Origin: Escherichia coli
Lineage (GTDB): Bacteria; Pseudomonadota; Gammaproteobacteria; Enterobacterales; Enterobacteriaceae
Direction: 5' to 3' (one strand)
Assembly: GCF_013315695.1 (NCBI RefSeq)
Contig: NZ_CP054353.1
Length of the DNA: 64,000 nucleotides
In this document: piece after piece, positions 3,524 through 52,212 of the stretch
How positions within the stretch are numbered: position 1 is the first letter of the stretch
How the letters are laid out: every line of letters starts with the position of its first letter
Position numbers and translations under genes: made by a program
Notes under the pieces: model-generated
Seen by the model: only the letters and a program-made list of their open reading frames with translations
Told to the model about the DNA's origin: nothing
The model's database searches: none

Positions 3524-3928
3524 ATGAAAACGGTCATCACCTTCGGCACCTTCGATGTGTTTCATGTCGGTCATCTGCGCCTTTTACAACGCGCCCGCAC
3601 GCTGGGCGAACGGCTGCTGGTCGGCGTATCGTCCGACGCCTTAAATATCGCCAAAAAGGGCAGAGCACCGGTTTACCCTCAGGATGACCGCATGTCGATC
3701 ATCGCCGGGCTGGCGTGCGTGGATGGCGTATTTCTGGAGGAATCGCTGGAGCAGAAAGCGGAGTATCTGCGGGGGTACCGTGCGGATATTTTAGTGATGG
3801 GCGATGACTGGGCAGGAAAGTTTGACAGCTTCGCGTATATTTGTGAGGTAGTGTATTTCCCCCGCACGCCGTCGGTGTCGACGACGGGGATTATTGAGGT
3901 GATTAGGGGTAAATCAGCCACCTACTGA
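3524..3928 (+). CDS. Cytidylyltransferase (glycerol-3-phosphate cytidylyltransferase TagD-like, nucleotidyltransferase superfamily)
   Basis: 134 aa; N-terminal FGTFDVFHVGH (HxGH) motif; ATG 2 nt after the lfiJ stop with GGAG upstream, so translationally coupled to the flagellar operon. Confidence 0.75.
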   Translation: MKTVITFGTFDVFHVGHLRLLQRARTLGERLLVGVSSDALNIAKKGRAPVYPQDDRMSIIAGLACVDGVFLEESLEQKAEYLRGYRADILVMGDDWAGKFDSFAYICEVVYFPRTPSVSTTGIIEVIRGKSATY

Positions 3929-9345: not shown

Positions 9346-9711
9346 ATGCGGATTGAAGCAGGAGTGACGCAGAGAATGGGGATCAGTTTTCAACAAGCAT
9401 TGGGAGTGCATCCGCAGGCAGTGAAGTTACGTCTTGAGAGGACCGAGCTACTGACTGCGAATCTGGCGAACGTCGATACGCCAAATTTCAAGGCTAAAGA
9501 TATTGATTTTGCCAGGGAGATGCAACGGGCAAATAACGCGGCGGTGGATGTCCAGTACCGCGTGCCGATGCAGCCGTCAGAAGATGGCAACACCGTGGAA
9601 CTGAACAGCGAACAGGCACGGTTTTCACAAAATAGTATGGATTATCAAAGCTGTCTGACCTTTCTGAATCTGCAAATCAGCGGCATCAGAGAGGCCATTG
9701 AAGGGAAATAA
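9346..9711 (+). CDS. lfgB: Flagellar proximal rod protein FlgB family (LfgB)
   Basis: Conserved ANLANVDTPNFKAKDIDF and C-terminal DGNTVELN rod motifs; start uncertain (9346 or 9376). Confidence 0.8.
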   Translation: MRIEAGVTQRMGISFQQALGVHPQAVKLRLERTELLTANLANVDTPNFKAKDIDFAREMQRANNAAVDVQYRVPMQPSEDGNTVELNSEQARFSQNSMDYQSCLTFLNLQISGIREAIEGK

Positions 9712-21350: not shown

Positions 21351-22265
21351 ATGTTATCTATTAACACCAATAACGCCTCAATGGCCGCCGTTAATGCAAT
21401 CAGCAAAAGCAGCTCTTCTCTGTCTACATCTATGGAACGCCTGGCAACGGGTAACCGGATTAACTCTTCTGCCGATGACGCAGCGGGCAAACAAATTGCT
21501 AACCGTCTGACAGCACAGTCCAGCGGTATGGGTGTGGCGCTGAGCAACATCAATGATGCCACCGCGATGCTGCAAACCGCCGACAGCATGTTCGACGAAA
21601 TGTCTGATGTGCTGGGTCGTATGAAAGACCTGTCAACTCAGGCAGCGAACGGCACCTACAGCGACGACGACCTGCAGGCGATGCAGGACGAATACGACGA
21701 ACTGGGTCAGCAGATGTCTGACATGCTGCAAAACACCACTTACGGCGGTACCAACCTGTTCGGTGTTTCCGGCACCAGCAACACCGGTACTGACGGCCTG
21801 TTCCAGAGCGCGGTAACTTTCCAGGTGGGCGCGGAATCTTCCGACACCATGACCGTGAACATTTCAAGCCAACTGAACACCCTGGTGACCGATCTTTCTT
21901 CTATCAGCAACTCCTTTAGTGCGGATCAGGCTGACACCACGGGCACCGCAGGTGTTTCTGGCGGTACTGAGCTGACCGCGTCTGGCTCGGCTAACCAGAT
22001 GATCACCAGCATCTCTACCGCGATGGATGATGTTTCGCAGATCCAATCCAAGCTGGGTGCGTCTATTAACCGTCTGAACGACACTGCCAACAACCTGACC
22101 AGCATGCAGAACAACACGGAAGTCGCTATCGGTAACATCATGGATACCGACTACGCGACGGAAGCGTCCAACATGACCAAACAACAGGTGCTGATGCAGA
22201 CCGGCATCACTATGCTGAAACAGTCCAACAGCATGTCCAGCATGGTTTCCAGCCTGCTGCAGTAA
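21351..22265 (+). CDS. lafA: Lateral-type flagellin (LafA)
   Basis: 304 aa; canonical flagellin N-terminus (MLSINTNNASM...LATGNRINSSADDAAG); AAGGAG SD 8 nt upstream of the ATG. Confidence 0.9.
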   Translation: MLSINTNNASMAAVNAISKSSSSLSTSMERLATGNRINSSADDAAGKQIANRLTAQSSGMGVALSNINDATAMLQTADSMFDEMSDVLGRMKDLSTQAANGTYSDDDLQAMQDEYDELGQQMSDMLQNTTYGGTNLFGVSGTSNTGTDGLFQSAVTFQVGAESSDTMTVNISSQLNTLVTDLSSISNSFSADQADTTGTAGVSGGTELTASGSANQMITSISTAMDDVSQIQSKLGASINRLNDTANNLTSMQNNTEVAIGNIMDTDYATEASNMTKQQVLMQTGITMLKQSNSMSSMVSSLLQ

Positions 22266-22267
22266 TG

Positions 22268-22306
<39 letters not shown>

Positions 22307-22312
22307 ACGAAC

Positions 22313-22341
22313 AACACCGCCTGCGGGCGGTGTTGTTCTTT
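22313..22341 (+). terminator. Rho-independent terminator after lafA
   Basis: Hairpin AACACCGCC-TGCG-GGCGGTGTT followed by a T-rich tract (GTTCTTT). Confidence 0.55.
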
Positions 22342-22470
22342 CTGCGGCAGGCCTTTTTCCGCCAGACCGGAAACACCATTTCCGCCCCTTTTTCAATTTA
22401 TTGATTATTCACATAAAAATTATTGGCACGCCTTTTGCCAATAACCTGACATCGTTATCCGGAGTCATCA

Positions 22471-23787
22471 ATGATCAACCCAAGAACCATTGCGCAAGAA
22501 ATCGCCTATGCGGATGTTGCCACTCAGGCGGCAAACTTGCAGGAGAAGCAGAGCGAGCTGGATGCGGAAAGCAGCGGCCTGGACTCGCTCAGCTCAGCGT
22601 TGAGCGATTTTCAGAGCGCCGTTGACGCGCTGAACAGCGATACTGACGGCCCGGTGACGTTTGCCGCCACCAGCAATAATGACTCGGCGACCGTTTCCGC
22701 CAATTCCCAGGCGCAGGCGGGAAGCTACTCATTTTTCGTTGAGCAACTGGCACAGGGGCAGCAAACCACGTTCAGTATGGGCGACGACGCCTTTTCCGCT
22801 ACCGGCACCTTCGAACTGACGATGGGCGGCAGCACCATGGATATCGATCTGTCGGCGGCGGATCAAAACGGTGACGGCGACGGTTTTATCGACGCCAGTG
22901 AACTGGTGAATGCGATTAACGACTCTGATGACAATCCGGGCGTGTCGGCGGCACTGGTAAAAACCGACGGCACCACCACGATTATGCTCACCTCCGATAG
23001 CACCGGGGCGCAGAGCGCATTTTCGGTGAGCGTAACGGGGCATGACGCCAGCAACGACAGCGCCAGCGCGCCTGTTGCTACGGATGTTTCCTCCGCCCAG
23101 GACGCGATTATTCATCTCGGCAGCGCCACGGGGCCAGAGATCACTAATAGCAGCAATACCTTTGATGATGTGATCCCCGGCGTCACCATGACTTTCACCG
23201 AAGTCAGCGATTCTGACAGCGATCTCACTACCTTTAACATCAGCGAAGATTCCAGCGCCAGCCAGGAGAAAGTACAGACCTTTGTCGATGCATATAACAC
23301 CTTGATTGATACGGTTGATTCGCTGACCACCCACGGTGATGACAGTACCAGCGCCGGGGTATTTGCAGGCGACGCCGGACTCAGCTCACTGGCAAACCAG
23401 CTCGATGACATCGCCCATGCCAGCTACAACGGCGTGTCGATTGTCGACTATGGCATTACGCTCGATTCTCACGGCCATTTACAGATTGATTCAGACCAGT
23501 TCAACGACGCGATGAAGAGCGATCCCGACGGCCTGACCTCTATTTTCGTCGGCGATAACAGCATGGTGGCGCAGATGGACAGCCTTATTGACACCTATAC
23601 CGACTCCAGCAACGGCATCATCACCCTGCGCCAGCAGAACATTGACGATCAGATGAGCAAAATTCAGGACGAAGGCGATCAGCTTACCGATACCTATAAC
23701 GCCAACTACGACCGTTATCTGGAGGAGTACACCAACACGCTGGTTGAGGTGTACACCATGAAAGCCAGCATGGCGGCATTCGCGTAA
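22471..23787 (+). CDS. lafB: Flagellar filament cap protein, FliD family (LafB)
   Basis: 438 aa; FliD-like N-terminal coiled-coil region and overall composition. Confidence 0.8.
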   Translation: MINPRTIAQEIAYADVATQAANLQEKQSELDAESSGLDSLSSALSDFQSAVDALNSDTDGPVTFAATSNNDSATVSANSQAQAGSYSFFVEQLAQGQQTTFSMGDDAFSATGTFELTMGGSTMDIDLSAADQNGDGDGFIDASELVNAINDSDDNPGVSAALVKTDGTTTIMLTSDSTGAQSAFSVSVTGHDASNDSASAPVATDVSSAQDAIIHLGSATGPEITNSSNTFDDVIPGVTMTFTEVSDSDSDLTTFNISEDSSASQEKVQTFVDAYNTLIDTVDSLTTHGDDSTSAGVFAGDAGLSSLANQLDDIAHASYNGVSIVDYGITLDSHGHLQIDSDQFNDAMKSDPDGLTSIFVGDNSMVAQMDSLIDTYTDSSNGIITLRQQNIDDQMSKIQDEGDQLTDTYNANYDRYLEEYTNTLVEVYTMKASMAAFA

Positions 23788-23809
23788 CTCAGAAGGAATA
23801 TCCCTAAAG

Positions 23810-24202
23810 ATGTACCAAGTACAGGATGGCTATTCGCAATACAAAGAGGTCGATCTCGCGGCGCGTACCGCTGCGGCATCGCCTCTTGAACTGGTGCTGG
23901 TGCTGTTTTCTGGCCTGATGGACGAGCTGGAACGCGCCAGAAGCCACATTGAAGGGCGGCGTTTCGAGAAGAAAGCCCAGAGCATCAATAAATGCATCGA
24001 CATTCTCAATGCGCTCACCAGTTCGCTGGAGTTTGAAACCGGTGGCGAGCTGGTGGTGAATCTTTCTCGCCTCTATGACCACTGCGTGTATCGCTTGTAT
24101 GAAGCCAGTGGCGAACTGTCGGCAGAGAAAATCGATGAAGTGATGCTGATCTTAAGCAACCTGCGTGAAGGCTGGGAAGGGCTTTCGGGCAAGCTGGGTT
24201 AA
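23810..24202 (+). CDS. lafC: Flagellin chaperone FliS family (LafC)
   Basis: 130 aa; helical-bundle protein with the FliS-like N-terminus MYQVQDGYSQY; position after the fliD-like gene. Confidence 0.8.
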   Translation: MYQVQDGYSQYKEVDLAARTAAASPLELVLVLFSGLMDELERARSHIEGRRFEKKAQSINKCIDILNALTSSLEFETGGELVVNLSRLYDHCVYRLYEASGELSAEKIDEVMLILSNLREGWEGLSGKLG

Positions 24203-24206
24203 GACG

Positions 24207-24518
24207 ATGGAAAAACAACGCAGGCAACTTTTCGCGCTGGTTGAAGCGATGAACGAAGCCCTCGACAAGCAACGCTGGCGACGCCTTCCGGCACTGCATC
24301 AGCAGTTGATGCGCCAGTTTCACGATTACGTGGCGGCGGAAACCGACGCGGCGCAGTTGTGTGCGGTGAAGGCGCAGCTGTACGGCGCGTTTAATGCCCT
24401 GATTAAACGGCGCGAGCAGCGTGCAGAAGTGTTGAAGGCGCGTATGGAACAGCATCAGCGGCATCAGGAAGGCGTACTGGCCTACTCAATTGTTAATTTA
24501 CTTTCGGAGAAGTCATGA
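24207..24518 (+). CDS. Hypothetical small helical protein (FliT-like position, LafD)
   Basis: 103 aa from ATG at 24207; assignment by position only. Confidence 0.4.
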   Translation: MEKQRRQLFALVEAMNEALDKQRWRRLPALHQQLMRQFHDYVAAETDAAQLCAVKAQLYGAFNALIKRREQRAEVLKARMEQHQRHQEGVLAYSIVNLLSEKS

Positions 24519-25603
24519 ATCCGGCATTGCTTGCCACGCTCGGAACACTTGCGGAAACGGCGTCGCTGAAAGCGGATATTTTACCGCCGGTGAGTAGTGA
24601 AAACGCGCCCGCGTTTACCCTGCCGAAAATGGCGGTCGCGGCGGTGGCGGAGCGCGTTCATAGCGCTAAAACCAGTCAGCATCAGGCGACGCGCCCGCAG
24701 GAGAACGATCCGGTGGCGATGCAGGCGCTAATGGCGCTGTTACTTCCGCAACCTGCCGCGCCGCATCAGGACACGCCGCAGCCGCGAAACGTCGCAACAT
24801 CGCCGGTTATCCAGCAATTGACGAAAGCGGTGGTGCAAAACGCGCCGCAACGCCCGACGCAGCAGCAGGAACTCACGTCGTTGCCGCCGCAGTTGCAGGA
24901 ACTCACGTCGTTGCCGCCGCAGTTGCAGGAACTGATCGGTCAGTTGCCGCAGGCGAAACCCGAACAGCAGGCCAGACTGGCGACTTACGCCAGTGACGAT
25001 TTACATGCCATTGCGCCGACGCAGCCGCGCGTCTCAACACCGCCAGCTCGCCCGAAACCTGAACTACCCCGTGTGAACGCGCGCCCGCAGGTCGAGCGTA
25101 AAACGGAAAAAGTGCCGGACAGCGAACCGGTTATTGCGCGTGCGGTGTTGCAGGTTAAGACGCCGGATCTGGTCAGCGAACATCATGAGATTGTCGCCAA
25201 ACCAGCCACGCTTTCGATGGACGAACTGGGCGAAAAACTGACGACGCTGTTGAAAGATCAGATCCACTTTCAGCTCAACAAACAACAGCAGATCTCCACC
25301 ATCCGTCTCGATCCACCGTCGCTTGGCAAGCTTGAGATCGCCGTACAACTCGATAACGGCAAACTGATGGTGCACATCGGCGCGAACCAAAGTGAAGTTT
25401 GCCGCGCGTTACAACAGTTTAGCGACGATCTCTGCCAGCATTTGACGGCGCAAAATTTTATGGAGGTGAACGTACAGGTTTCCTCCGAAGGGCAGTCGCA
25501 GCAACAACAGTCGGGCCATCAGCAGGAAGAGGTGAGTGCCGCCTTACAGCTTGATGATGCGCCTCAATTTCAACAGAACGAATCCGTTTTGATCAAAGTG
25601 TAA
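24515..25603 (+). CDS. lafE: Hook-length control protein, FliK family (LafE)
   Basis: 362 aa; Pro/Gln-rich linker with tandem repeat and C-terminal Flg_hook-like domain (LGKLEIAVQLDNGKLMVHI). Confidence 0.7.
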   Translation: MNPALLATLGTLAETASLKADILPPVSSENAPAFTLPKMAVAAVAERVHSAKTSQHQATRPQENDPVAMQALMALLLPQPAAPHQDTPQPRNVATSPVIQQLTKAVVQNAPQRPTQQQELTSLPPQLQELTSLPPQLQELIGQLPQAKPEQQARLATYASDDLHAIAPTQPRVSTPPARPKPELPRVNARPQVERKTEKVPDSEPVIARAVLQVKTPDLVSEHHEIVAKPATLSMDELGEKLTTLLKDQIHFQLNKQQQISTIRLDPPSLGKLEIAVQLDNGKLMVHIGANQSEVCRALQQFSDDLCQHLTAQNFMEVNVQVSSEGQSQQQQSGHQQEEVSAALQLDDAPQFQQNESVLIKV

Positions 25604-25610
25604 AGGCAAT

Positions 25611-26078
25611 ATGAAGAAAATCGTGGTGGCGGGCGTGGTCAGCGCCGTTCTGGCGTTGGTGGTGGGGGCCGGAGCTGGATGGGGTGTCTGGCATCATTAT
25701 GCCGGAAAAGGAAAACCGACTGCCGCCGCGCAGACGGAAACGGTGGAAACCCTGGATGAAAGCAAAAGCGTATTTGTGACGTTGCCGGAAACCATTGTCA
25801 CGCTGCATGACAACAACGGCGCGGACCATTATTTGTCGGCGGAATTAGTGATGGTGGTCGCCAGTGACAAAGAAGCGGAAAAAATAAAACATCAGGAGCC
25901 GCTGTATCAAAGTATTGCAGTTGAATGCCTGACGGAAATGAAATTTGAAGATTTGCGTGGCATGAAAATATCCGCCATCCGCAAACTGATTTCGGATGCG
26001 TTAAAGAAAGATCTTCAACGTCGCAAAATGAGCGCACCGTATAAGGATTTGCTGGTGAAAAAAGTGGTCTTCCAGTAA
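25611..26078 (+). CDS. lafF: Flagellar basal-body-associated protein, FliL family (LafF)
   Basis: 155 aa with a single N-terminal TM helix and FliL-like C-terminal region. Confidence 0.65.
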   Translation: MKKIVVAGVVSAVLALVVGAGAGWGVWHHYAGKGKPTAAAQTETVETLDESKSVFVTLPETIVTLHDNNGADHYLSAELVMVVASDKEAEKIKHQEPLYQSIAVECLTEMKFEDLRGMKISAIRKLISDALKKDLQRRKMSAPYKDLLVKKVVFQ

Positions 26079-26097
26079 TCACCAGGCGGATATAAAC

Positions 26098-26817
26098 ATG
26101 CTACAGGACGTATTATTCGAGTCAGAAGAATTTGCTGCCGCGCCGGTATTAACCCCGCAGCAGGAGAGCCACTACTTGCAGGCCTATTTACCTCTGGTGC
26201 GTAAAGTGGTGCGGCAACTTGCCCCGCAGTGTAATTGCATTATTGATCGTCAGGATATGGAACAAACGGCGTTAATGGGGCTGTTGAACGCCATTCGTCG
26301 CTATGGGCTGCCGGACGAAGGTTTTGCGGGCTATGCCGTGCACCGGATTCGCGGCGCGATCCTTGATGAGCTGCGCGCTCTCGACTGGCGACCGCGCCAG
26401 CTGCGACAGAAATATCATCAGATGAAAGACCTGATTCGCGAAACGCGTAAAAAACTGGGGCACGAACCGGAGTGGCAGGAGCTGGCTGAGGAAGGGATCT
26501 CGCATGAAGATTATCTCGAATATCAGCAACTGGAAGGGGCGGAAACGCTCGCCAGCCTGGACGAACTGCTGAACGGCGAAGGGCCAGGCATTCCGCTTGC
26601 TGGCAGAGACCTGGAAGATCAGTTTGTCACCCAGCAAATGCTGCAACACGCGCTTTCACAATTAAGCGAAAAAGAGCAACTGATCCTCTCCATGTATTAC
26701 CAGCATGAGATGAATCTCAAAGAGATTGCGCTGGTATTAGGGCTAACCGAGGCCCGAATTTGTCAACTGAATAAACAGATCGCGCAGAAAATTCGTGATT
26801 TTGTCTATCCGAATTAA
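26098..26817 (+). CDS. lafS: Flagellar sigma-28 factor, FliA family (LafS)
   Basis: 239 aa; sigma-70 region 2 and region 4 helix-turn-helix (LKEIALVLGLTEARICQL). Confidence 0.85.
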   Translation: MLQDVLFESEEFAAAPVLTPQQESHYLQAYLPLVRKVVRQLAPQCNCIIDRQDMEQTALMGLLNAIRRYGLPDEGFAGYAVHRIRGAILDELRALDWRPRQLRQKYHQMKDLIRETRKKLGHEPEWQELAEEGISHEDYLEYQQLEGAETLASLDELLNGEGPGIPLAGRDLEDQFVTQQMLQHALSQLSEKEQLILSMYYQHEMNLKEIALVLGLTEARICQLNKQIAQKIRDFVYPN

Positions 26818-26829
26818 AGTGAAGAAATC

Positions 26830-27693
26830 ATGCAAAAAATATTAGGTTTACTGGTGGTGCTCGGCTGCGTATTTGGCGGTTATTTTGAAGCGGGCGGCCA
26901 ATTAGTGGCTATCTGGCAGCCTGCAGAGATAGTTATTATTTTAGGTGCTGGTTTCGGGGCGATGATTATTGGGAACCCGAAACATGTGCTGAAAGAGATT
27001 GCCCATCAAATTAAAGGCGTGATCAGTAAAAAACAGCTCGGGCCGGAGTTTCAGCGCCAGCTATTAATGTGCCTGTATGAGTTGCTTGAAATGGTACAAA
27101 ACGGCGGTCTGCGGATGTTGGATCAGCATATTGAGCAGCCGGAAGAGAGTACCGTTTTCCAGAAATACCCGCTGGTGTTAACCCAGAAGCGGCTGGTGAC
27201 TTTTATTGCCGATAACTTTCGCCTGATGGCGATGGGTAAAATCGACGCCCATGAACTGGAAGGCATTCTCGATCAGGAGCTGGATACCGCCGAAGAGTCG
27301 CTGCTAACGCCGTCACGCTCGCTGCAACGGACCGCCGAAGCGATGCCGGGATTTGGTATTTGTGCAGCAGTGTTGGGCATCATCATTACCATGCAGTCGA
27401 TTGACGGCTCTATCGCCCTGATCGGCCTGAAAGTGGCGGCAGCGCTGGTGGGGACGTTTTTAGGCGTGTTTATCTGCTACTGCCTGATGGATCCGCTTGC
27501 CAACGCCATGGAACAACAGGCGCGGGCGGAACATTCGCTGCTGGAGTGTGTGCGTACCGTGCTGGTGGCCCAGGCGGGCGGCAAACCGACGCTGTTGGCG
27601 GTGGACGCCGGGCGTAAGTTGCTGCATCTGGCGTCCAAACCGACCTTCGCCAACCTCGACGCGTGGGTGAATGCGATGCTGGAGCAAGAATAA
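26830..27693 (+). CDS. lafT: Flagellar stator protein MotA family (LafT)
   Basis: 287 aa polytopic membrane protein with a MotA/TolQ/ExbB-type channel region. Confidence 0.85.
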   Translation: MQKILGLLVVLGCVFGGYFEAGGQLVAIWQPAEIVIILGAGFGAMIIGNPKHVLKEIAHQIKGVISKKQLGPEFQRQLLMCLYELLEMVQNGGLRMLDQHIEQPEESTVFQKYPLVLTQKRLVTFIADNFRLMAMGKIDAHELEGILDQELDTAEESLLTPSRSLQRTAEAMPGFGICAAVLGIIITMQSIDGSIALIGLKVAAALVGTFLGVFICYCLMDPLANAMEQQARAEHSLLECVRTVLVAQAGGKPTLLAVDAGRKLLHLASKPTFANLDAWVNAMLEQE

Positions 27694-27695
27694 GC

Positions 27696-28619
27696 ATGAG
27701 AAAGACGGGCAACCGCCGCGAGCGTGGGGCAAAAACCACCATCGTCCGGCGGCAGATCAAAAAGAATCATGCCGGGCATCATGGCGGGGCGTGGAAGGTG
27801 GCGTTCGCCGACTTTACCCTGGCGATGATGGCGCTATTTATGACGCTGTGGATTGTCAACAGCGTCAGTAAATCCGAGCGTGAAAGCATTATCGCCGCGC
27901 TGCACGGGCAGTCGATTTTTAATGGTGGAGGGCTGTCGCCGTTAAATAAAATCAGCCCGTCTCATCCGCCAAAACCTGCCACCGTGGCGGTGCCGGAAGA
28001 GACGGAGAAAAAAGCGCGTGACGTCAATGAGAAAACGGCGCTGCTGAAGAAGAAATCCGCTACTGAGCTTGGCGAGCTGGCGACCAGTATCAACACTATT
28101 GCCCGTGATGCACATATGGAAGCGAATCTGGAGATGGAGATTGTTCCCCAGGGACTGCGCGTGCTGATTAAAGATGACCAGAACCGCAATATGTTTGAAC
28201 GCGGCAGCGCACAGATTATGCCGTTCTTTAAAACTTTGCTGGTGGAGTTAGCGCCGGTTTTTGATTCGCTCGACAATAAGATCATCATCACCGGGCATAC
28301 CGATGCGATGGCCTACAAAAACAATATCTACAACAACTGGAACCTTTCGGGTGACCGCGCGCTTTCGGCTCGTCGGGTGCTGGAAGAGGCAGGAATGCCG
28401 GAAGATAAAGTGATGCAGGTGAGCGCAATGGCGGACCAGATGCTGCTGGATGCCAAAAATCCGCAAAGCGCGGGCAACCGGCGCATTGAGATTATGGTGC
28501 TGACTAAAAGCGCGTCCGATACGCTGTATCAATACTTTGGTCAGCATGGGGATAAAGTGGTGCAGCCGCTGGTGCAAAAGCTGGATAAGCAGCAGGTACT
28601 TTCACAGCGAACGCGCTAG
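27696..28619 (+). CDS. lafU: Flagellar stator protein MotB family (LafU)
   Basis: ATG at 27696 immediately after the lafT stop; N-terminal TM helix and C-terminal OmpA-like peptidoglycan-binding motif (NWNLSGDRALSARRV). Confidence 0.85.
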   Translation: MRKTGNRRERGAKTTIVRRQIKKNHAGHHGGAWKVAFADFTLAMMALFMTLWIVNSVSKSERESIIAALHGQSIFNGGGLSPLNKISPSHPPKPATVAVPEETEKKARDVNEKTALLKKKSATELGELATSINTIARDAHMEANLEMEIVPQGLRVLIKDDQNRNMFERGSAQIMPFFKTLLVELAPVFDSLDNKIIITGHTDAMAYKNNIYNNWNLSGDRALSARRVLEEAGMPEDKVMQVSAMADQMLLDAKNPQSAGNRRIEIMVLTKSASDTLYQYFGQHGDKVVQPLVQKLDKQQVLSQRTR

Positions 28620-40783: not shown

Positions 40784-40859
40784 GCCGATATAGCTCAGTT
40801 GGTAGAGCAGCGCATTCGTAATGCGAAGGTCGTAGGTTCGACTCCTATTATCGGCACCA
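40784..40859 (+). tRNA. thrW: tRNA-Thr (anticodon CGU), thrW-like
   Basis: 76-nt GCCGATATAGCTCAGTTGGTAGAGCAGCGCATTCGTAATGCGAAGGTCGTAGGTTCGACTCCTATTATCGGCACCA; cloverleaf arms, CGT anticodon, encoded CCA. Confidence 0.9.
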
Positions 40860-41024
40860 TTCAAACATCTCCCCAAGTCTACTAAAGTCTTTCAAAACCC
40901 CTTATAATCCGCGTATTAAAGCCCCGTTCGTCTTTTGACGTCTACTAAAGTCCCTCAAAATCTACGGTCAGATGGGGGTACTTATGGGGGTATTTGCTGT
41001 TCGGTTTAGTGGAGGTACCCCCAA

Positions 41025-42239
41025 GTGAAACTCAATGCCCGTCAAATAGACACAGCCAAGCCAAAAGAGAAGGCTTACAAGCTGGCCGATGGTGGCGGTT
41101 TGTATCTCTTGGTAAAACCTAATGGAGGTAAATACTGGCGACTTAAATATCGTGTAGCTGGTAAAGAGAAGCTATTGGCACTAGGTGTTTATCCTGAGGT
41201 TACTCTAGCCGATGCTCGGGCAAAACGTGAAGATGCGAAAAGAGGTATCGCTGGTGGTATCGAACCGATGGAAGCGAAACGAGAGGAAAAGATTGCCCGG
41301 GAAACGCAGTTAAACAACACCTTCAAAGATATTGCCCTTGAGTGGCACAGCAGCAAATTAAAAAAATGGTCTGCTGGTTATGCTTCAGACATCCTCGAAG
41401 CCTTCAACAAAGATGTGTTCCCTTACATTGGCAAAAAACCCATCGCCGAAATCAAACCACTTGAACTTCTGAATGTGCTGCGTCGCATCGAGGGGCGCGG
41501 TGCTACAGAAAAAGCCAAAAAAGTGAGGCAACGGTGCGGGGAAGTTTTCCGCTATGCAATAGTCACTGGTCGCGCAGAGTATAACCCTGCACCAGACCTT
41601 ACTAGCGCGATGCAAGGCCATGAATCTAATCATTACCCTTTCCTTACAGCCAAAGAATTACCTGATTTTTTCAAGGCATTGTCCAGTTACTCAGGAAGCG
41701 CATTGGTTGTTATGGCGGCTCGTCTACTGATTATCACCGGCTTGCGGACTGGCGAACTACGTGGCGCATTATGGGATGAAATTGATTTCAACAAGGCTAT
41801 CTGGGAGATACCCGCTTCACGTATGAAAATGCGGCGGCCTCATATTGTGCCATTGTCTGAGCAGGCTCTTTCGCTTATTGGGAAGATTAGAGAAATAACA
41901 GGCAATTACCCTCTTATGTTTCCCGGGCGCAATGATCCAAGGAAAACAATGAGCGAGGCCAGCATAAACCAAGTGTTTAAGCGCATTGGCTACGCTGGAC
42001 GTGTAACTGGTCATGGGTTCCGGCACACTATGAGTACGATTTTGCATGAGCAGGGCTATAACACTGCGTGGATAGAAACGCAGCTCGCTCACGTTGATAA
42101 GAACTCAATTCGTGGCACATACAACCATGCGCAATATCTGGATGGAAGGCGGGAGATGCTTCAATGGTATGCCGACTATATGGATTCTCTCGAGCATGGC
42201 GGAAATGTGGTGCATATGGTGTTTGAAAAACACGCATGA
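41025..42239 (+). CDS. int: Tyrosine site-specific integrase (P4-type)
   Basis: 404 aa, GTG start with GGAGG SD; N-terminal arm-binding-type region (GGGLYLLVKPNGGKYWRLKYR) and C-terminal catalytic R-H-R-Y region (HGFRHT ... RGTYNHAQY). Confidence 0.85.
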   Translation: MKLNARQIDTAKPKEKAYKLADGGGLYLLVKPNGGKYWRLKYRVAGKEKLLALGVYPEVTLADARAKREDAKRGIAGGIEPMEAKREEKIARETQLNNTFKDIALEWHSSKLKKWSAGYASDILEAFNKDVFPYIGKKPIAEIKPLELLNVLRRIEGRGATEKAKKVRQRCGEVFRYAIVTGRAEYNPAPDLTSAMQGHESNHYPFLTAKELPDFFKALSSYSGSALVVMAARLLIITGLRTGELRGALWDEIDFNKAIWEIPASRMKMRRPHIVPLSEQALSLIGKIREITGNYPLMFPGRNDPRKTMSEASINQVFKRIGYAGRVTGHGFRHTMSTILHEQGYNTAWIETQLAHVDKNSIRGTYNHAQYLDGRREMLQWYADYMDSLEHGGNVVHMVFEKHA

Positions 42240-42890
42240 AACAACTGGACAAGTATACAGAGGTTTACTAAAGTATAAGGGAGTAGATTGATAAAAACTC
42301 ACAGAGGATTGCTATTTAACAGTTAGCCATGGAGAAGGGCAATCGCTCTTTTAACAACGAAGATGGAATCTTCTACGCAGCTGAAAAGCTGGATGCTCTT
42401 TAACAGCCTTTGGTGCTTTTCTGATGCAGGAAAGAATAGGGATACATGCACCTTTACAATGCATGTAATGATTCATCCATGAGGCTGCGGAGCGCTGACA
42501 AAGCGCAATTGCTCTTTAACATTGATGTGGGCGGGATGGTTCGTCCCGCAGTGACCGATAGATTTCTATCGGGAAACATACAATGATTCAAATATGAATC
42601 TACGGCGCTGACAAAGCGCAATTGCTCTCTTGCCTGCCCACCATGCCCTGAAAAAGGGCGTTCTTTAAAACTACTGGATGTCACGCCTAATAGCGTGATC
42701 CTGCCGAAATGCAGGGTAGCTCTACCCTTGTGGAGCAAACAAACCAAAACAATCTGACTATCTTTTATAAAAGACCGCAATATGTTTTTCATATTGTGGT
42801 CTTTGGCGTATTCGACATTTGACGCAAATAAAACTCTCGCCATTCGTTGCAGGAGGGGGTTATTGCGTCATTAGTACAGGATATTAATAA

Positions 42891-43094
42891 ATGGCTAATT
42901 ACAATTCATTAATTCGTCTCTCTGAAGTTCAAAGGCGAACTGGTTATAGCAAAGCATGGATTTATCGTCTTATTAGTCAGGGGAGGTTCCCTAAACAGGT
43001 AAAAATTGGAAGTCGGGCAATTGCTTTTGTTGAGTCTGAAATAGATGAATGGATTGAGAAGTGTATATTAGAATCTAGAGACGAGGTGGCCTGA
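42891..43094 (+). CDS. alpA: AlpA-family phage transcriptional regulator / excisionase-like protein
   Basis: 67 aa; AlpA signature RLSEVQRRTGYSKAWIYRLISQGRFPKQVKIGSRAIAFVESEIDEWI. Confidence 0.8.
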   Translation: MANYNSLIRLSEVQRRTGYSKAWIYRLISQGRFPKQVKIGSRAIAFVESEIDEWIEKCILESRDEVA

Positions 43095-44371: not shown

Positions 44372-44546
44372 GCCGACAGGAACACCACAACCTCAAAAAC
44401 GCTACAAAGATGCCCACGGAGCACTCGTTACTGTCGAAAGCGTGTCTCACAACCGAGTGACGTTTTATCGCGACGGGTATCAATCGCCATGCGTACAACC
44501 GCTGGCGCGCTTCATGAAGGAGTTCGCGGAGGTTAACAAATGCTAA
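44364..44546 (+). CDS. Hypothetical small protein
   Basis: 60 aa from ATG at 44364 (ATGTTTAA overlap with the preceding stop). Confidence 0.3.
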   Translation: MFKPTGTPQPQKRYKDAHGALVTVESVSHNRVTFYRDGYQSPCVQPLARFMKEFAEVNKC

Positions 44547-45607
44547 CCGTCCAGAAGAAGATATTTTCACTGGCTGGTATGTCACCAAAATCCAGCAATA
44601 TGACAGCAAAGTCTGGCATTAATACAGCAGATACAAGCAAAGTTTATCATTTTCTGGTGGTAGGAGCGGATGCCTTAACTATGTCAGAAATTACGGTCGA
44701 TGGTGTTAGCGTTGAGAAGGTCAGCGGCTGCGCCAGAGAATTTCTGGTCGTAGATGGCTTTCTCTGCTCGCGTAGTGACTCCACAAAAACCTTCGTCCAT
44801 ACGCGCGACGTTAACGAAATGAGCGCGATGTATTGTGCATCTGGTGCTTCCAATACTGAGTTTTCGGAGTCCATAAAAAAGAGCTTGCCGTTATGCGGCA
44901 ACACGGTTTATGGTTATAAGGCACCTCATAAAACGGGTGCCGGGATTGGCGTCCTGAAAATTCTGAAGGCGACATATGACGCGCCGAGCGTCTTTTTTTA
45001 TGTCGTAGGTCTGACTCACCCATTTTTTGGGCGTTGGTGTATAATCCAGCGCCTTTGTCAATCAATGGTGGCTCAGGCGGGGGCTTCTTCGGAAGCGCCG
45101 GTATCCTTCAGAGCCGGTTACGCCAACCCTGTCTGGGCTACCACCAGCGAAATTGGCGTTTCCGGTGGTAGCGTAACCTGCTATCTGAAGGAGGCTGCCA
45201 CATGCTGGCTACTACCCCTACCCAAAAACCGCAATTTATCTGGATTATCGCCGCAGTTCGCCGCGATTGCCCGACAATTACCGCCAAAATTCATCATATT
45301 GCTGCCGAGTCTGAACGCGATGCTCGCCGTTCTCTGGTGCGCGATCACGTCTGCTTTTTTGCTGGTCGTATCCGCATGGAGGTGGCACATGATTAAAACC
45401 TACGATGTGCATATGGATCCCCTCGAACGCACAAGCCAGATCATCACACTGACAGAAGTGATTAACGACATTCTGGTGAGCAACTCTCCCTCACGAGACG
45501 AAAGGCTGAAGGCGTTACTCGCGATATTGGATCTCGCCGTTCGTGACGTTCATTTCCTGCTGGAAGGTGGCGAAATGCCAGGAAAAACGGGGGCAACCAA
45601 TGAATAA
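44540..45607 (+). CDS. Hypothetical ORF, possibly over-called or chimeric
   Basis: 355-aa open frame with heterogeneous composition; the only long open frame over 44.5-45.6 kb; its C-terminal part could be an independent small gene. Confidence 0.25.
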
Positions 45608-47219: not shown

Positions 47220-47583
47220 AAATGCAGAAATGGCGCTTAGCTCCGCAATCGGAGAGCAGGTGGCAAAGATTGCTGGTGCTGTGTGGATTCATAACCTTCA
47301 TTCTACTGGTGAAGAGAAAATGGCAATTCAGACGCCAGAGGGACGCACCATTACTACATCTCTGAAGCCGTCAGATGTTTGTGATCTGATTTGCGCATTC
47401 ATGTACCCAGCAATGAGGACTGTCCACGGCGATAAGTGGAAACTTGCGACAACCGCTGAATTTGATATGTGGCTAAACAATGATGGCATGCTGACTGATT
47501 ACGGAATAACCAAGTGGCAGATGCTGGTTAGCCATATCGCAAACGCTATAGACCACGTGGGGTACGGTGATGCGAAACATTGA
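47212..47583 (+). CDS. Hypothetical protein
   Basis: 123 aa; overlaps the primase start. Confidence 0.35.
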   Translation: MRENAEMALSSAIGEQVAKIAGAVWIHNLHSTGEEKMAIQTPEGRTITTSLKPSDVCDLICAFMYPAMRTVHGDKWKLATTAEFDMWLNNDGMLTDYGITKWQMLVSHIANAIDHVGYGDAKH

Positions 47584-50326
47584 TCTTATCCGTCAGGTTA
47601 TCAGTGCGTCTGAAAACAACTGGCCTCATGTGCTGGGCTGCCTGAACATAAATGTCCCTGACTCTCCGCGCCGTCATGCTCCCTGCCCTGCATGTGGGGG
47701 CAAAGATCGATTCCGGTTCGATGACAACGGGCGCGGTAGCTTCATCTGTAATCAGTGCGGCGCTGGTGATGGGCTGGATTTAATTAAACGCGTAAATAAC
47801 TGCGACACAACAGAGGCGGCGCTTCTTGCCGCTGATGTTCTGGGTATTGATTACCGGACAACGGAAACACCAGAAGCCACCAGCCAGAAACGGGAACAAC
47901 TGGAAACCGAGCGCCAGCGACGCGAACAGGAGCGCCTGAAAAGGGCAGAGAAGGACGAACAACAAAGACGGGATACGTTTTCCCGTCAGTTTGATGACAT
48001 GCGCAGAAAGGCTGTAAACGGCAAATCTGATTATCTGGTTGCGAAAGGGGTAGGTGATTTTACATTCCCCGTGTTGCCCGATGGATCTCTGTTGCTGGCG
48101 CTGGTGGATAAATCCGGCGCAGTCACAGCAGCACAGACTATTACATCACATGGTGAAAAAAGACTCCTGACAGGTTCAGCAAAGCGGGGGGCATATCACG
48201 CCATAAACGCGCCAGAAACAACACAGAGCATCTTAATCGCAGAAGGGCTGGCAACGGCATTATCTGCCCATTTAATTCGTCCAGAGGCGCTGACAGTGGC
48301 GGCGATTGATGCCGGGAACCTGTTATATGTCGCCCAGGTACTGCGGGATAAATTTCCTTCAGCACAAATCATCATTGCTGCGGATAACGACCACAGCGAA
48401 GGAAGACAAAACACGGGGAGAATAGCAGCAGAAAAAGCAGCTTTATCTGTTTCTGGATGGGTGGCATTACCCCCGACAGATCACAAAGCAGACTGGAATG
48501 ATTACCACCAAAAACACGGCATTAAATGCGCCACAGAAGCGTTCAATAAGTCAATGTACCAACCACAGGGTAATGGCGTGAAACATGAGCCACAGACCAT
48601 TGAGGGAAGCGATTTTAAGGTTATGGATACCGACCCACTGAAACCAAGAATAGAAAGCCGCGAGGATGGTATTTATTGGGTATCTCCGAGAGCTGACAGC
48701 CAGAGTGGAGAAATCATCAATAACGAAAGCTGGTTATGTTCTCCGTTAAGCGTTATCGGTACTGGCAGAGACGATAAAGACCAGTATCTCATTCTTCGCT
48801 GGCTGTCGTTTGGTTCTGAAACGCCGACAACCGCTGCCATTCCACTGGCTGATATTGGTGAACGTGAAGGATGGCGCACACTTAAAGCTGGTGGGGTAAA
48901 TGTCACGACCAAAAGCAGCCTCAGAGCAATACTGGCAGACTGGCTACAACGCAGTGGCTCTCGTGAATTGTGGCGTGTTGCTCATGCCACTGGCTGGCAA
49001 TGCGGAGCGTACATCATGCCTGATGGGGAAATCATCGGAACACCTGAAAATCCTGTGCTGTTCAGCGGGAGAAGCTCAGCCGCAGCCGGATATACCGTCT
49101 CAGGGAGCGCGAAAAGCTGGCGTGATAACGTGGCGCGTCTGGCCTTTGGTAACTATTCAATGATGACCGGGATCGGCGCAGCACTGGCAGCGCCATTGAT
49201 TGGGCTGGTGGGCGCTGACGGGTTCGGCATTCATTTCTATGAGCAGTCGAGCGCAGGTAAGACCACCACGGCAAACGTGGCGAGCAGCTTATACGGCAAC
49301 CCTGATTTACTGCGGCTGACGTGGTACGGAACCGCGCTGGGGCTGGCAAATGAGGCCGCCGCCCACAATGACGGACTAATGCCGCTTGATGAAGTTGGTC
49401 AGGGCGCTGATCCTGTCAGCGTTTCACAGTCTGCCTATGCGTTATTTAACGGTGTAGGGAAACTGCAAGGCGCTAAAGATGGTGGAAACCGGGATCTAAA
49501 ACGCTGGCGTACAGTGGCAATCAGCACCGGAGAAATGGATTTAGAAACATTTATCGCTACTTCCGGGCGAAAAACCAAAGCCGGGCAACTGGTGCGACTG
49601 CTGAATATTCCGTTGAGTAAAGCAGTACGCTTTCACGATTACCAGAACGGAAAACAGCACGCAGACGCACTGAAAGACGCTTACCAGCATCACCACGGCG
49701 CGTCCGGGCGTGAGTGGATTAAATGGCTGGCAGACCACCAGCAACAGGCTATTAAAACCGTTCGTGACTGCGAAAGCAGATGGAGAAGCCTGATCCCATC
49801 CGATTATGGTGAGCAGGTTCACCGTGTAGCCGCGCGATTTGCCATTCTGGAGGCCGCATTGTTGTTAGGCGAGGTTGTAACAGGCTGGGATGCTCAGACA
49901 TGCCGTGATGCGATACAGCACAGCTATAACGCATGGTTGCGCGAGTTCGGCACAGGTAACAAAGAGCATCAGCAGATTATTGAACAAACGGAGGCATTTC
50001 TTAATGCCTATGGGCTTAGCCGTTTTGCACCATTTCCATACAGCCCGGCAGATTTGCCCATCAAAGATTTAGCCGGATACCGTCAGCGTGGAGAACATGA
50101 CGAAAGCCCAATGATTTTCTACACATTCCCGGCCACATTTGAAAAGGAGATCGCATGTGGTTTCAACGCAAAACAGTTTGCTGAAGTGTTGAAAAAAGCC
50201 GGGATGCTAACCCCACCAAACAGCGGTCGTGGATACCAAAGAAAATCACCACGTATTCAGGGACGACAAATAAACGTTTATGTACTCAATTACCAGCCAG
50301 GAGATTATAACTCATCTGAAGAATGA
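47567..50326 (+). CDS. Satellite-type DNA primase/helicase (zinc-finger + TOPRIM + D5-like NTPase)
   Basis: 919 aa; N-terminal CPACGG...CNQCG zinc finger, TOPRIM-like region (ILIAEGLATALS), Walker A SSAGKTT in the C-terminal half. Confidence 0.8.
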   Translation: MMRNIDLIRQVISASENNWPHVLGCLNINVPDSPRRHAPCPACGGKDRFRFDDNGRGSFICNQCGAGDGLDLIKRVNNCDTTEAALLAADVLGIDYRTTETPEATSQKREQLETERQRREQERLKRAEKDEQQRRDTFSRQFDDMRRKAVNGKSDYLVAKGVGDFTFPVLPDGSLLLALVDKSGAVTAAQTITSHGEKRLLTGSAKRGAYHAINAPETTQSILIAEGLATALSAHLIRPEALTVAAIDAGNLLYVAQVLRDKFPSAQIIIAADNDHSEGRQNTGRIAAEKAALSVSGWVALPPTDHKADWNDYHQKHGIKCATEAFNKSMYQPQGNGVKHEPQTIEGSDFKVMDTDPLKPRIESREDGIYWVSPRADSQSGEIINNESWLCSPLSVIGTGRDDKDQYLILRWLSFGSETPTTAAIPLADIGEREGWRTLKAGGVNVTTKSSLRAILADWLQRSGSRELWRVAHATGWQCGAYIMPDGEIIGTPENPVLFSGRSSAAAGYTVSGSAKSWRDNVARLAFGNYSMMTGIGAALAAPLIGLVGADGFGIHFYEQSSAGKTTTANVASSLYGNPDLLRLTWYGTALGLANEAAAHNDGLMPLDEVGQGADPVSVSQSAYALFNGVGKLQGAKDGGNRDLKRWRTVAISTGEMDLETFIATSGRKTKAGQLVRLLNIPLSKAVRFHDYQNGKQHADALKDAYQHHHGASGREWIKWLADHQQQAIKTVRDCESRWRSLIPSDYGEQVHRVAARFAILEAALLLGEVVTGWDAQTCRDAIQHSYNAWLREFGTGNKEHQQIIEQTEAFLNAYGLSRFAPFPYSPADLPIKDLAGYRQRGEHDESPMIFYTFPATFEKEIACGFNAKQFAEVLKKAGMLTPPNSGRGYQRKSPRIQGRQINVYVLNYQPGDYNSSEE

Positions 50327-50350: not shown

Positions 50351-50456
50351 TGTTGGTTCAGTTGGTTCAATTTGTAAAGAGTATTGTTTTATAAGGATTT
50401 TATTCTTTTTATTGAACCAACACTGAACCAACAACACGGTATTTTGAACCAACACA
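50351..50456. promoter_or_regulatory. Candidate replication origin: inverted clusters of TGAACCAAC iterons flanking an AT-rich spacer
   Basis: GTTGGTTCAGTTGGTTCAA (50352-50370) then ~42 bp AT-rich, then TGAACCAACACTGAACCAACAA and TGAACCAACACA (50413-50456); begins 25 bp after the primase stop. Confidence 0.5.
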
Positions 50457-50774
50457 ATGTGACTGAATTGATGCGCACAACACCTGGCTGGCATCAGAGA
50501 GTGTTTTACGAGACTTTCGTAAAATCCTGTGTACAAGGGCGTGACGTTTTTGAAAGTGAGCACTACGAAATTTTCGTAGTTCAGAAAACAGCCTCTGAGA
50601 AGTTGTTATGCCTGTTCAGCAAACCATCCGCATAGCTGATCGCGAATCAAATTACCAATGGAGCCAGAAGCAAGGGCAGAACTGAAAAGCGCCTGCCGTG
50701 AAGAGTAATGCGACACCATAAATATAGTTTTTAGAGTCCATAAAAAACCTGTCAAAACCTGACACACAGAACGA

Positions 50775-50806: not shown

Positions 50807-50901
50807 GTGCTATTTGTTTCATATTTTGCAATTACGATGATGAATATTGCGATTTGTGAAACTATAATAACTGTTGTTTTATACAGTTCTAAGGGGGCGT
50901 T

Positions 50902-51063
50902 ATGGCTATTTCAGTAAAGCCGGTATTGATAAGTGAGAAGCAAATGGAAGCGATAAAGAAAATTCAGGAAGAGCAGCGTAAAAAATCAGGAATTGGAGTA
51001 GCGCCAACTCTGCATGAAATTGCACGAGGGTTAATAGATAAGGCGCTGGCAGGCTGTATGTGA
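50902..51063 (+). CDS. Small ORF (53 aa) not in the ORF track; possible small DNA-binding protein
   Basis: ATG at 50902 with AAGGGGG SD 7 nt upstream; charged helical composition. Confidence 0.35.
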   Translation: MAISVKPVLISEKQMEAIKKIQEEQRKKSGIGVAPTLHEIARGLIDKALAGCM

Positions 51064-51079
51064 AAATGGATGGCATCGC

Positions 51080-51541
51080 ATGGAACTAAAATTTATTGAT
51101 AACCCTGTGCGATTACAGGCCTTTCTTAACGAGCCAGGCAATACCGAAAATATTGTTGAGCCGGGGCACACGTACTACATCAAGCCTGATGCGGTATATC
51201 TCGGCATCTACGAAGGATTAGTGCTGGCTGGCGTTCATGAAGTGCGTAACTTCTGGCATAGCGTTGTTGAATGCCATGCGGTGTACGACCCCGGATTCCG
51301 TGGTGAATATGCACTGCAAGGACATCGATTATTCTGCAAATGGCTTCTCGAAAACTCACCATTCCTTAACAGCATTACCATGGTTCCTGACACCACGAAA
51401 TACGGACGGGCAATTATCCGTTTGCTTGGCGCTACCCGTGTTGGTCATCTTGATGATGCTTATATCAGATGTGGTAAACCCGTCGGCGTAACGCTTTATC
51501 AGTTAACTCGGCAACAATATAAGGAATTCAGCGAATGTTAA
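51080..51541 (+). CDS. Hypothetical protein (candidate virion-associated protein)
   Basis: 153 aa; first of three tightly coupled same-strand genes. Confidence 0.4.
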   Translation: MELKFIDNPVRLQAFLNEPGNTENIVEPGHTYYIKPDAVYLGIYEGLVLAGVHEVRNFWHSVVECHAVYDPGFRGEYALQGHRLFCKWLLENSPFLNSITMVPDTTKYGRAIIRLLGATRVGHLDDAYIRCGKPVGVTLYQLTRQQYKEFSEC

Positions 51542-52212
51542 TTACCCATATAGCTTATAAACATCTCAATCGTGCCGTATACGAAAAAGGCGGTGATGGT
51601 GGTGCCTCTAAAGCTCAGGCGAAGGCCCAGCAGCAGGCAATTGATTTGCAGCGCGAGCAGTGGAATACGGTGATGAATAATCTCAAGCCGTATGCAGAAG
51701 TCGGATTGCCTGCTTTACAACAACTACAAGGACTGATGACTCTGGAAGGGCAGAATAAAGCCGCGAATGATTTCTTTGGTTCTGGTTTATATAAAACACA
51801 GGCAGATCAGGCCCGTTATCAGAACCTTGTCTCAGCAGAAGCTACCGGGGGGCTTGGCTCAACAGCTACCAGTAACCAGTTATCTTCCATTGCGCCCATG
51901 CTTTATAACAATTGGCTCAGTGGGCAAATGCAAAATTATGGAAACCTGCTAAATGTCGGGATGAATGCGGCATCAGGGCAGGCAACAGCAGGGCAAAACT
52001 ACGCCAATAATACCGGACAACTCTTGCAGGGGCTTGGCGCTATTCGTGCAGGTCAGGCGCAGCAGCCATCCAGTCTTGCGCGTGGTATTGGTGGGGCGGC
52101 ATCAGGCGCTTTAGCGGGTGCGCAACTTGGTTCCGTTGTTCCGGGTATAGGTAATGTCGCCGGGGCTATTGGTGGTGGGCTTATTGGTCTTGTTGGGGGG
52201 CTTGGATTCTAA
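51535..52212 (+). CDS. Hypothetical protein with Gly-rich hydrophobic C-terminus (candidate phage ejection/internal protein)
   Basis: 225 aa; Gln/Asn-rich middle, C-terminal GxxxG-rich tail (GIGNVAGAIGGGLIGLVGGLGF). Confidence 0.4.
   Translation: MLITHIAYKHLNRAVYEKGGDGGASKAQAKAQQQAIDLQREQWNTVMNNLKPYAEVGLPALQQLQGLMTLEGQNKAANDFFGSGLYKTQADQARYQNLVSAEATGGLGSTATSNQLSSIAPMLYNNWLSGQMQNYGNLLNVGMNAASGQATAGQNYANNTGQLLQGLGAIRAGQAQQPSSLARGIGGAASGALAGAQLGSVVPGIGNVAGAIGGGLIGLVGGLGF

Follow-up and report, generated by a model that had tools for sequence, protein, structure and literature searches.

The thrW locus and its integrated element

The window, i.e. the whole 64,000 nucleotide stretch of Escherichia coli DNA analysed here, is 99.9% identical to E. 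coli strain MSB1_4I over the tested stretch. Downstream of proBA it carries thrW (40784–40859, plus strand), a tRNA-Thr(CGT) gene detected by ARAGORN and the Rfam tRNA model, and proA lies upstream of thrW in all E. coli matches. A gap of 165 bp (40860–41024), the region studied here, separates thrW from a gene (int, 41025–42239, plus strand) with a GTG start codon that specifies a P4-family tyrosine integrase of 404 aa (Pfam Arm-DNA-bind_3 (PF13356), Phage_int_M and Phage_integrase). The Arm-DNA-bind_3 domain covers residues 3–88 (E = 2e-27) and is followed by the central and the tyrosine-recombinase catalytic domains. The protein shares 42% identity with P4 Int, the N-termini of the two being near-identical, and apo structures of the N-domain have been solved from its relatives (3JU0, 3JTZ).

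Downstream of int is a gene (42891–43094, plus strand) for an HTH protein of the AlpA/Vis family (Pfam Phage_AlpA, 7e-20), which is 39% identical to the P4 excisionase Vis and 33% identical to AlpA, and is the candidate RDF (excisionase) for reading the box sequences described below. Further downstream in the element are antA/B and ash genes, matches to the C4 antisense RNA and isrK families, and a gene for a Zn-ribbon/Toprim/DUF927 primase (47567–50326). The element at thrW is a P4/PICI-like satellite.

Several other features of the window were noted. The Rfam matches to isrK (44921–44998, 67.8 bits) and C4 antisense RNA (45061–45148, 79.9 bits) both fall inside an Ash-family ORF (44540–45607), and this region resembles a CI-type RNA immunity region of the P4 kind. 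Just downstream of the primase gene, at 50352–50465, five iteron-like copies of TGAACCAAC (two inverted, three direct) are arranged around an AT-rich spacer; judged by its sequence this region is a probable replication origin, and a short part of it is also matched in two relatives of the element, L017 and L022. The spacer between int and alpA (42326–42640) contains direct repeats about 115 nt apart, including two copies of GCGCTGACAAAGCGCAATTGCTCT and three of TGCTCTTTAACA. RefSeq leaves this spacer unannotated in the identical strain, and L022 does not share it. Right after the satellite primase come P22-like genes (window 50900–53630; DUF2824 and ejection proteins), which also come after the primase in SBF22 (L011, 9933–14769) and are present at 424–3338 of L022, the contig that holds an attP-like junction. 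These helper-type ejection-protein genes may be carried by the satellite itself rather than belonging to a neighbouring prophage remnant. At about 21351–28619, upstream of dinB, is a set of lateral-flagella (Flag-2) genes, lafA to lafU, fliD, fliS, fliK, a fliA-like gene and motA, with coordinates mapped from the annotation of a near-identical strain (L001).

The att core and the island side of the junction

The 3' end of thrW holds the att core, TCCTATTATCGGCACCAT (40843–40860, plus strand), an identity block common to attL, attB and attP that was reconstructed from the attB of strain EC101 (L095), the attR of L017, the attP-like junction of L022 and the attL of the window. At the empty site of EC101, thrW is followed by TCAAGAAAATCAATAAC..., and the same sequence follows the attR of L017, a complete 9 kb relative. 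Homology between the window and most of 5,412 E. coli genomes ends at 40860–40869, just beyond the tRNA. L022 is an IMG/VR contig in which a P arm, the 18 bp core and a P' arm adjoin at 9600–9700 with no tRNA gene, and its P' arm matches the window at 99.2% from the core onward; the junction points either to an excised circle or to copies of the satellite arranged in tandem.

The original prediction was that short direct repeats in the gap are typical of integrase arm-binding sites next to an att core, and it proposed the empty thrW site as a means of delimiting attL. The comparison places the core at 40843–40860 and the end of the P' arm at 41026, and the gap does adjoin the core at the 3' end of thrW, as the island-side (P') arm of attL with sites for recombination proteins. 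The repeats were absent from the empty thrW site of EC101, where their presence would have contradicted the prediction, and also from thrW sites that hold other elements (L093, L094; CP4-6 of K-12 or a retron-bearing P4-like satellite). They belong, therefore, to the island and not to the chromosome.

Repeats within the gap

The 13-mer GTCTACTAAAGTC occurs exactly at 40877–40889 and 40940–40952, both positions being as originally predicted, and the repeat extends to 21 nt at 90% identity. A second repeat, ATGGGGGTA, had been placed at 40973 and 40983; it is indeed present twice, but each position was off by one, the copies lying at 40972–40980 and 40984–40992 as a 12 bp tandem. A third, inverted copy (TACCCCCA, 41016–41023), which overlaps the GTG start region at 41025, had been missed. 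TGGGGGTA has three occurrences on the two strands of the 64 kb window, all within 51 bp. The last of the predicted repeats corresponds to CCCCAAGT, found at 40871–40878 and 41019–41026.

Chance expectation was taken from 2000 dinucleotide-preserving shuffles of the gap. Direct repeats of at least 13 nt were seen in none of them (0/2000), and three copies of one 8-mer, both strands considered, in 10/2000. An 8 nt direct repeat appeared in about 21% of shuffles, so the CCCCAAGT pair is not significant alone. Its first copy precedes Box I (see below), its second is made up of the inverted arm site plus AAGTG of the int start, and the two copies show no co-variation in relatives; the pair is consistent with chance, as an incidental by-product. 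A third, degenerate 13-mer at 42263–42275 (two mismatches) was also treated as a chance match, 0.58 such matches being expected per window, and lies in a variable segment not shared with L022.

Probable integrase arm-type sites

The GenBank/RefSeq record of P4 (NC_001609) lists six 12 nt features named 'attP arm sequence repeat', with the motif TGGGGGCA. Two of them form a tandem immediately ahead of int, a third is inverted and overlaps the int start, two more form a tandem across the core from these, and the sixth falls within int. On the int side the layout in the window is that of P4 base for base (features 3965–3942 and 3915–3926), with a period of 12 and the start codon overlapped by the inverted copy; the distance from the core to the first site is 111 nt in the window and 112 nt in P4. 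The first predicted arm-type site, P'1 (ATGGGGGTACTT, 40972–40983, plus strand), matches the P4 repeat 3965–3954. P'2 (ATGGGGGTATTT, 40984–40995, plus strand) is in tandem with it, likewise has a P4 match, and is conserved in 45 unique relatives. The inverted site P'3 (41015–41026, minus strand; TACCCCCA on the plus strand) overlaps the int start codon, as does its equivalent in P4 (3915–3926).

Matching layouts were found next to P4-family integrases at selC, argW, leuX, thrW (other lineages), an argU-like site, glyU and ssrA (CP4-57). The tandem pair starts at −49 to −53 relative to the int start codon everywhere except in CP4-57 (−69), and position and period are kept to the base pair across integrases that are only 42–68% identical, at seven tRNA/tmRNA sites. 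Although the window itself has no P arm or attR, complete relatives carry copies on both arms: the P arm has a tandem pair of TGGGGGTA at a distance of about 62 nt from the core in L017 (attR), L022 (attP-like junction) and L044, whose integrases are 97–99% identical to that of the window, and such a P-arm pair is also present in the more distant L070 and L078.

The sites also vary together with the integrase. All three P' copies switch together between lineages, the variants being TA, CA, CC, TGTGTATA and, in CP4-57, TAGGCCCA; the CP4-57 integrase combines this different motif with a divergent N-terminus. Within the G5 class (arm site TGGGGGNA), base 7 of the arm site (40979, 40991 and 41017) matches Int residue 31 (LYL-x-V; 41115–41117) without exception in about 40 unique sequences, Leu occurring with T (31 unique), Glu with C (six plus one) and Met with C (one). 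These states are interleaved on a neighbour-joining tree, which implies at least 2–3 independent switches, but joint transfer of the P' arm and the adjacent 5' end of int by recombination, as one block, could explain part of the covariation. Given the positional homology with P4, the recurrence on the P arm and the co-variation with the N-terminal domain of Int, we take the TGGGGGTA copies to be arm-type sites, with the features expected of sequences that this domain would read.

The same inverted arrangement could also act at the level of RNA. P'1–P'3 bracket the Shine-Dalgarno sequence of int, GGAGG (41011–41015, plus strand; read from the sequence, 9 nt ahead of the GTG), and extend over the start codon, and in the predicted RNA fold 40985–40992 pairs with 41016–41023 (MFE −29 kcal/mol, z = −2.2). 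The TGGGGGTA/TACCCCCA pair might then be mainly a hairpin of the int leader, serving translation control or premature termination, and not a set of DNA sites. The Shine-Dalgarno sequence would be enclosed by such a stem, with the start codon right beside it, paired changes preserve its complementarity across lineages, and a relative at selC (L007) has an additional terminator-like hairpin; P4 int is also reported to be post-transcriptionally regulated (PMC2951348) and Vis to bind RNA (PMC2603039). However, the covariation is equally expected from inverted copies of one DNA site, and a single 5' arm would suffice for an RNA stem, whereas conservation and co-variation extend to both tandem copies. 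The tandem pair on the distant P arm, moreover, is without an inverted partner, the z-score is modest, and the 5' arm may not be transcribed. A hairpin cannot account for the tandem and P-arm copies, and we regard it as a rather improbable main function of the pair, but it can coexist with DNA sites, in which case a P'2/P'3 hairpin predicted around the ribosome-binding site may add a translational layer.

Probable excisionase boxes

The two copies of the 13/21 nt repeat resolve into 10 bp units. Box I (40877–40896, plus strand) includes the first copy and has two units, GTCTACTAAA and GTCTTTCAAA; Box II (40940–40969, plus strand) includes the second copy and has three, GTCTACTAAA, GTCCCTCAAA and ATCTACGGTC. 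Both are probable AlpA/Vis-type RDF sites. The units start at 40877 and 40887, and at 40940, 40950 and 40960, giving a 2+3 array of 10 bp-phased RTCWAY hexamers; in the window, both boxes have a degenerate second unit (GTCTTT and GTCCCT). Across 21 lineages, RTCWAY hexamers are fixed at −148/−138 (Box I) and −85/−75/−65 (Box II) from the int start, and their spacings are 10 bp in 13 instances and 20 bp in 15, with any other spacing seen at most once and shuffles giving about 0.02 per distance. RTCWAY or GTCTAC units were absent from the P arms of L017, L022, L070 and L078.

RDF sites typically take the form of direct repeats spaced by one helical turn (PMC7498355). The P4 Vis protein belongs to the AlpA family and is needed for excision (PMC2603039; PMC6092414), and it binds attP DNA in EMSA and footprinting experiments (PMC2603039).

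What varies with the box sequence is the RDF. In an IMG/VR scan anchored on the AlpA of the window, which recovered AlpA proteins of 73–100% identity next to integrases that between them use at least four cores and four arm motifs (TGGGGGTA, TGGGGGCA, YGGGGCA and TGTGTATAG), the boxes beside every window-type AlpA were RTCWAY. Four combinations of integrase and RDF (P4, L174/L170, L093 plus L176, and L127/L150) form a natural two-by-two comparison. P4 combines the arm motif TGGGGGCA with Vis and box units of RTCCG, while L174, the integrase of which is 74% identical to P4 Int and has CGGGGCA or TGGGGCA arm sites, has a window-type AlpA and RTCWAY. L093 and L176 have TGTGTATA arm sites, a Vis 99% identical to that of P4 and RTCCR units, whereas L127 and L150, with the same arm motif, have a window-type AlpA and RTCWAY. 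The box sequence thus follows the type of RDF and not that of the integrase, in a sample of two RDF classes and few independent combinations. The HTH recognition helix reads SRSTIY in the Vis class and SKAWIY in the window-type AlpA class.

The original prediction would make integrase arm-type sites of all three repeat families, GTCTACTAAAGTC, ATGGGGGTA and CCCCAAGT. Every one of these repeats does lie in the P' arm beside the core, the integrase has an arm-binding domain, and the GTCTAC units are conserved in relatives. Against this, the P arm repeats the TGGGGGTA pair but has no GTCTAC units; the latter stay constant beside integrases with three or four arm motifs and change with RDF type; a single N-domain is unlikely to read two unrelated motifs; and the CCCCAAGT copies neither co-vary nor exceed what shuffles give for 8-mers (21%). 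We consider it quite unlikely that all three families are arm sites. P4 homology, P-arm copies and covariation with Int uphold that assignment for ATGGGGGTA, and it is given up for GTCTACTAAAGTC and CCCCAAGT. The lack of P-arm copies, the 10 bp phasing and the association with an AlpA/Vis-type protein in place of Int make the GTCTACTAAAGTC blocks, on these sequence comparisons, most likely excisionase boxes rather than arm sites.

It is similarly doubtful that the GTCTAC boxes are sites for host factors such as IHF or Fis, or elements of the int promoter, in place of sites for a protein encoded by the element. Between the boxes lies the spacer element CCCCTTATAATCCGCGTATTAA (40898–40919, plus strand), which contains a perfect TATAAT hexamer (40903–40908), with Box I at the −35 position, and a sequence that, compared by eye, fits the IHF consensus weakly, with two mismatches, and IHF sites have been reported in the int regulatory regions of P4 and PAI I536 (PMC7286903). 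The spacer is conserved within the thrW clade but not in other lineages, however, and a sigma-70 scan of the gap called no consensus promoter, so that the TATAAT was not accepted as the int promoter; the IHF match is weak enough to make this at most a possible IHF site. Within a single host species, furthermore, sites for host factors would not be expected to alternate between RTCWAY and RTCCG depending on the RDF type, and 10 bp phasing at a fixed register is an RDF signature (PMC7498355). As for chance matches or neutral remnants without function, the CCCCAAGT pair alone, and the degenerate 13-mer at 42263 in its variable region, fit such an origin, but for the two main repeat classes it is effectively refuted by the absence of 13-mer repeats from 2000 shuffles and by conservation of position and period across seven tRNA/tmRNA sites, leaving it a negligible probability.

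A model for the P' arm of attL

Taken together, the gap is quite probably the P' arm of attL of a P4/PICI-like satellite at thrW, with three candidate Int arm sites and five candidate units for an AlpA/Vis-type RDF. The basis for this is sequence, homology, positional conservation and covariation, from which we infer all protein binding. The tandem P'1 and P'2 and the inverted P'3, on the ribosome-binding site and start codon, would be bound by the N-terminal domain of the adjacent Int, and the five RTCWAY units (2+3) between core and arm sites by the AlpA/Vis-type RDF, possibly with a site for a host bending protein between Box I and Box II. Int would then bridge the arm sites and the core over DNA bent by the RDF, and perhaps by IHF, to give an excisive complex.

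Because P'1–P'3 overlap the 5' region of int, Int bound there would also be expected to repress its own synthesis, as demonstrated in P4 and PAI I536. P4 Int is reported to repress its own promoter, with binding placed near the transcription start (PMC2951348); IntI likewise acts as a repressor of its promoter in PAI I536, where intI is preceded by an IHF site (PMC7286903). AlpA-type proteins need not act at Pint, since the AlpA of EcCICFT073 activated the island operon and left int expression unchanged (PMC6092414).

State of the element in the window

In L022 the element runs on past the position equivalent to 53625 of the window and up to the P arm. In the window it is cut at this point by an IS1 (53626–54394, minus strand; a 100% match to an IS1 in L017), after which the sequence passes into chromosomal ykg genes; the distal part of the element is gone, together with its P arm and attR. 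No attR or second copy of the core was detected in the 64 kb window with queries of 51, 30, 20 and 16 nt from the tRNA 3' end, mismatches allowed, and there is no second TGGGGGTA pair in the window. SBF22 likewise shows no attR within 17 kb, and EcPF5 (a 75% variant) was examined over 50 kb downstream of thrW, but the region is rearranged and uninformative on attR. A search of a phage collection returned short, integrase-internal matches only and no related att arm.

The attL of the window is therefore orphaned, and the element a truncated and probably immobile remnant, from which excision by Int and AlpA is not expected. With attR and its P arm deleted downstream of IS1, only a regulatory role can remain, and the orphaned attL can probably serve solely in int autoregulation.

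The surroundings of the truncation show further rearrangement. Two IS1 copies (53626–54394 and about 57129–57897) bracket ykgR, ykgM and ykgO, the first truncating a phage ejection-protein gene and the second ecpC, and the region found in K-12 between thrW and ykgM is missing.

Comparison with characterized systems

P4 shares with the window its integrase family, the class of arm motif (TGGGGGCA versus TGGGGGTA) and the layout of tandem, inverted and P-arm copies, as well as an AlpA/Vis-family RDF and two boxes of 10 bp units between the core and the arm sites. Two Vis boxes were reportedly placed between int and the core of P4 by Cali et al. in 2004. The differences lie in the site of integration (leuX in P4, thrW in the window), in arm base 7 and Int residue 31 (C/Glu31 versus T/Leu31), and in the box units and recognition helix (RTCCG with SRSTIY versus RTCWAY with SKAWIY). 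No sid, delta or psu genes were seen in the window element, and its P arm and attR are absent, unlike P4.

KplE1 (CPS-53) resembles the window in the number and grouping of RDF sites. Its attL overlaps the int regulatory region, and five sites for its RDF, TorI, are arranged as 2+3 between the core and the P' sites, as in the window (PMC2951348). Int and RDF both down-regulate int in that system (PMC2951348). IntS, however, belongs to another integrase lineage, its P' sites contain TAAA, and the TorI sites contain GTTCG, GATCG or GTCCG, unlike the RTCWAY of the window (PMC2951348). Transfer of the KplE1 map by way of an argW locus (L008) was abandoned, the integrase there being P4-like and not IntS, and the published motifs do not fit.

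CP4-57 (ssrA-intA-alpA) has the boxes, the 12 bp tandem pair and the inverted copy seen in the window, but differs in its arm sites (TAGGCCCA), its divergent Int N-terminus and its RTCCG boxes. The selC island L007 has the same architecture as the window, and intI of PAI I536 is also at selC; no base-level maps of arm sites were found in the accessible literature for CP4-57 or PAI I536. In L007 (1470–1510), an additional inverted arm copy comes right after the tandem pair, and GGGGGGCAT-AAAA-GATGCCCCC followed by ATTTT forms a terminator-like hairpin in the int leader. Lambda has in common with the window a heterobivalent Int with arm and core sites, phased direct repeats for its RDF, and sites for host bending proteins, but the motifs of its attP sites (P1, P2 and P'1–P'3; Xis X1, X1.5 and X2; IHF H) are unrelated to those of the window. 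The Xis sites of lambda lie on the arm distal to int, and lambda int is not controlled from a promoter inside attL.

Implications for att sites of P4-like satellites

The picture established for P4 and KplE1 is unchanged, and the P4-type att arm is already well known. The modest additions are that arm sites can be told apart from RDF boxes and that residue 31 correlates with base 7, and both points yield testable predictions. At the locus itself, attL is delimited for annotation. The result also corrects the habit of labelling every repeat beside a tRNA-linked integrase an 'arm site'.

A more speculative possibility, toward which we lean less than we doubt it, is a code of two proteins, in which Int residue 31 would set arm base 7 and the AlpA/Vis helix would independently set the box unit, while P'2/P'3 may gate int translation as a hairpin. 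If true, the specificity of arm sites and boxes would be predictable from sequence, and perhaps re-engineerable. More generally, the order of core, two-unit box, three-unit box, 12 bp tandem arm pair and inverted arm copy on the start codon is fixed across seven sites. The correspondence of arm sites with Int, and of boxes with the RDF, would provide a simple rule for att annotation, and for the compatibility of integrases, RDFs and their sites, in satellites, PICIs and pathogenicity islands.
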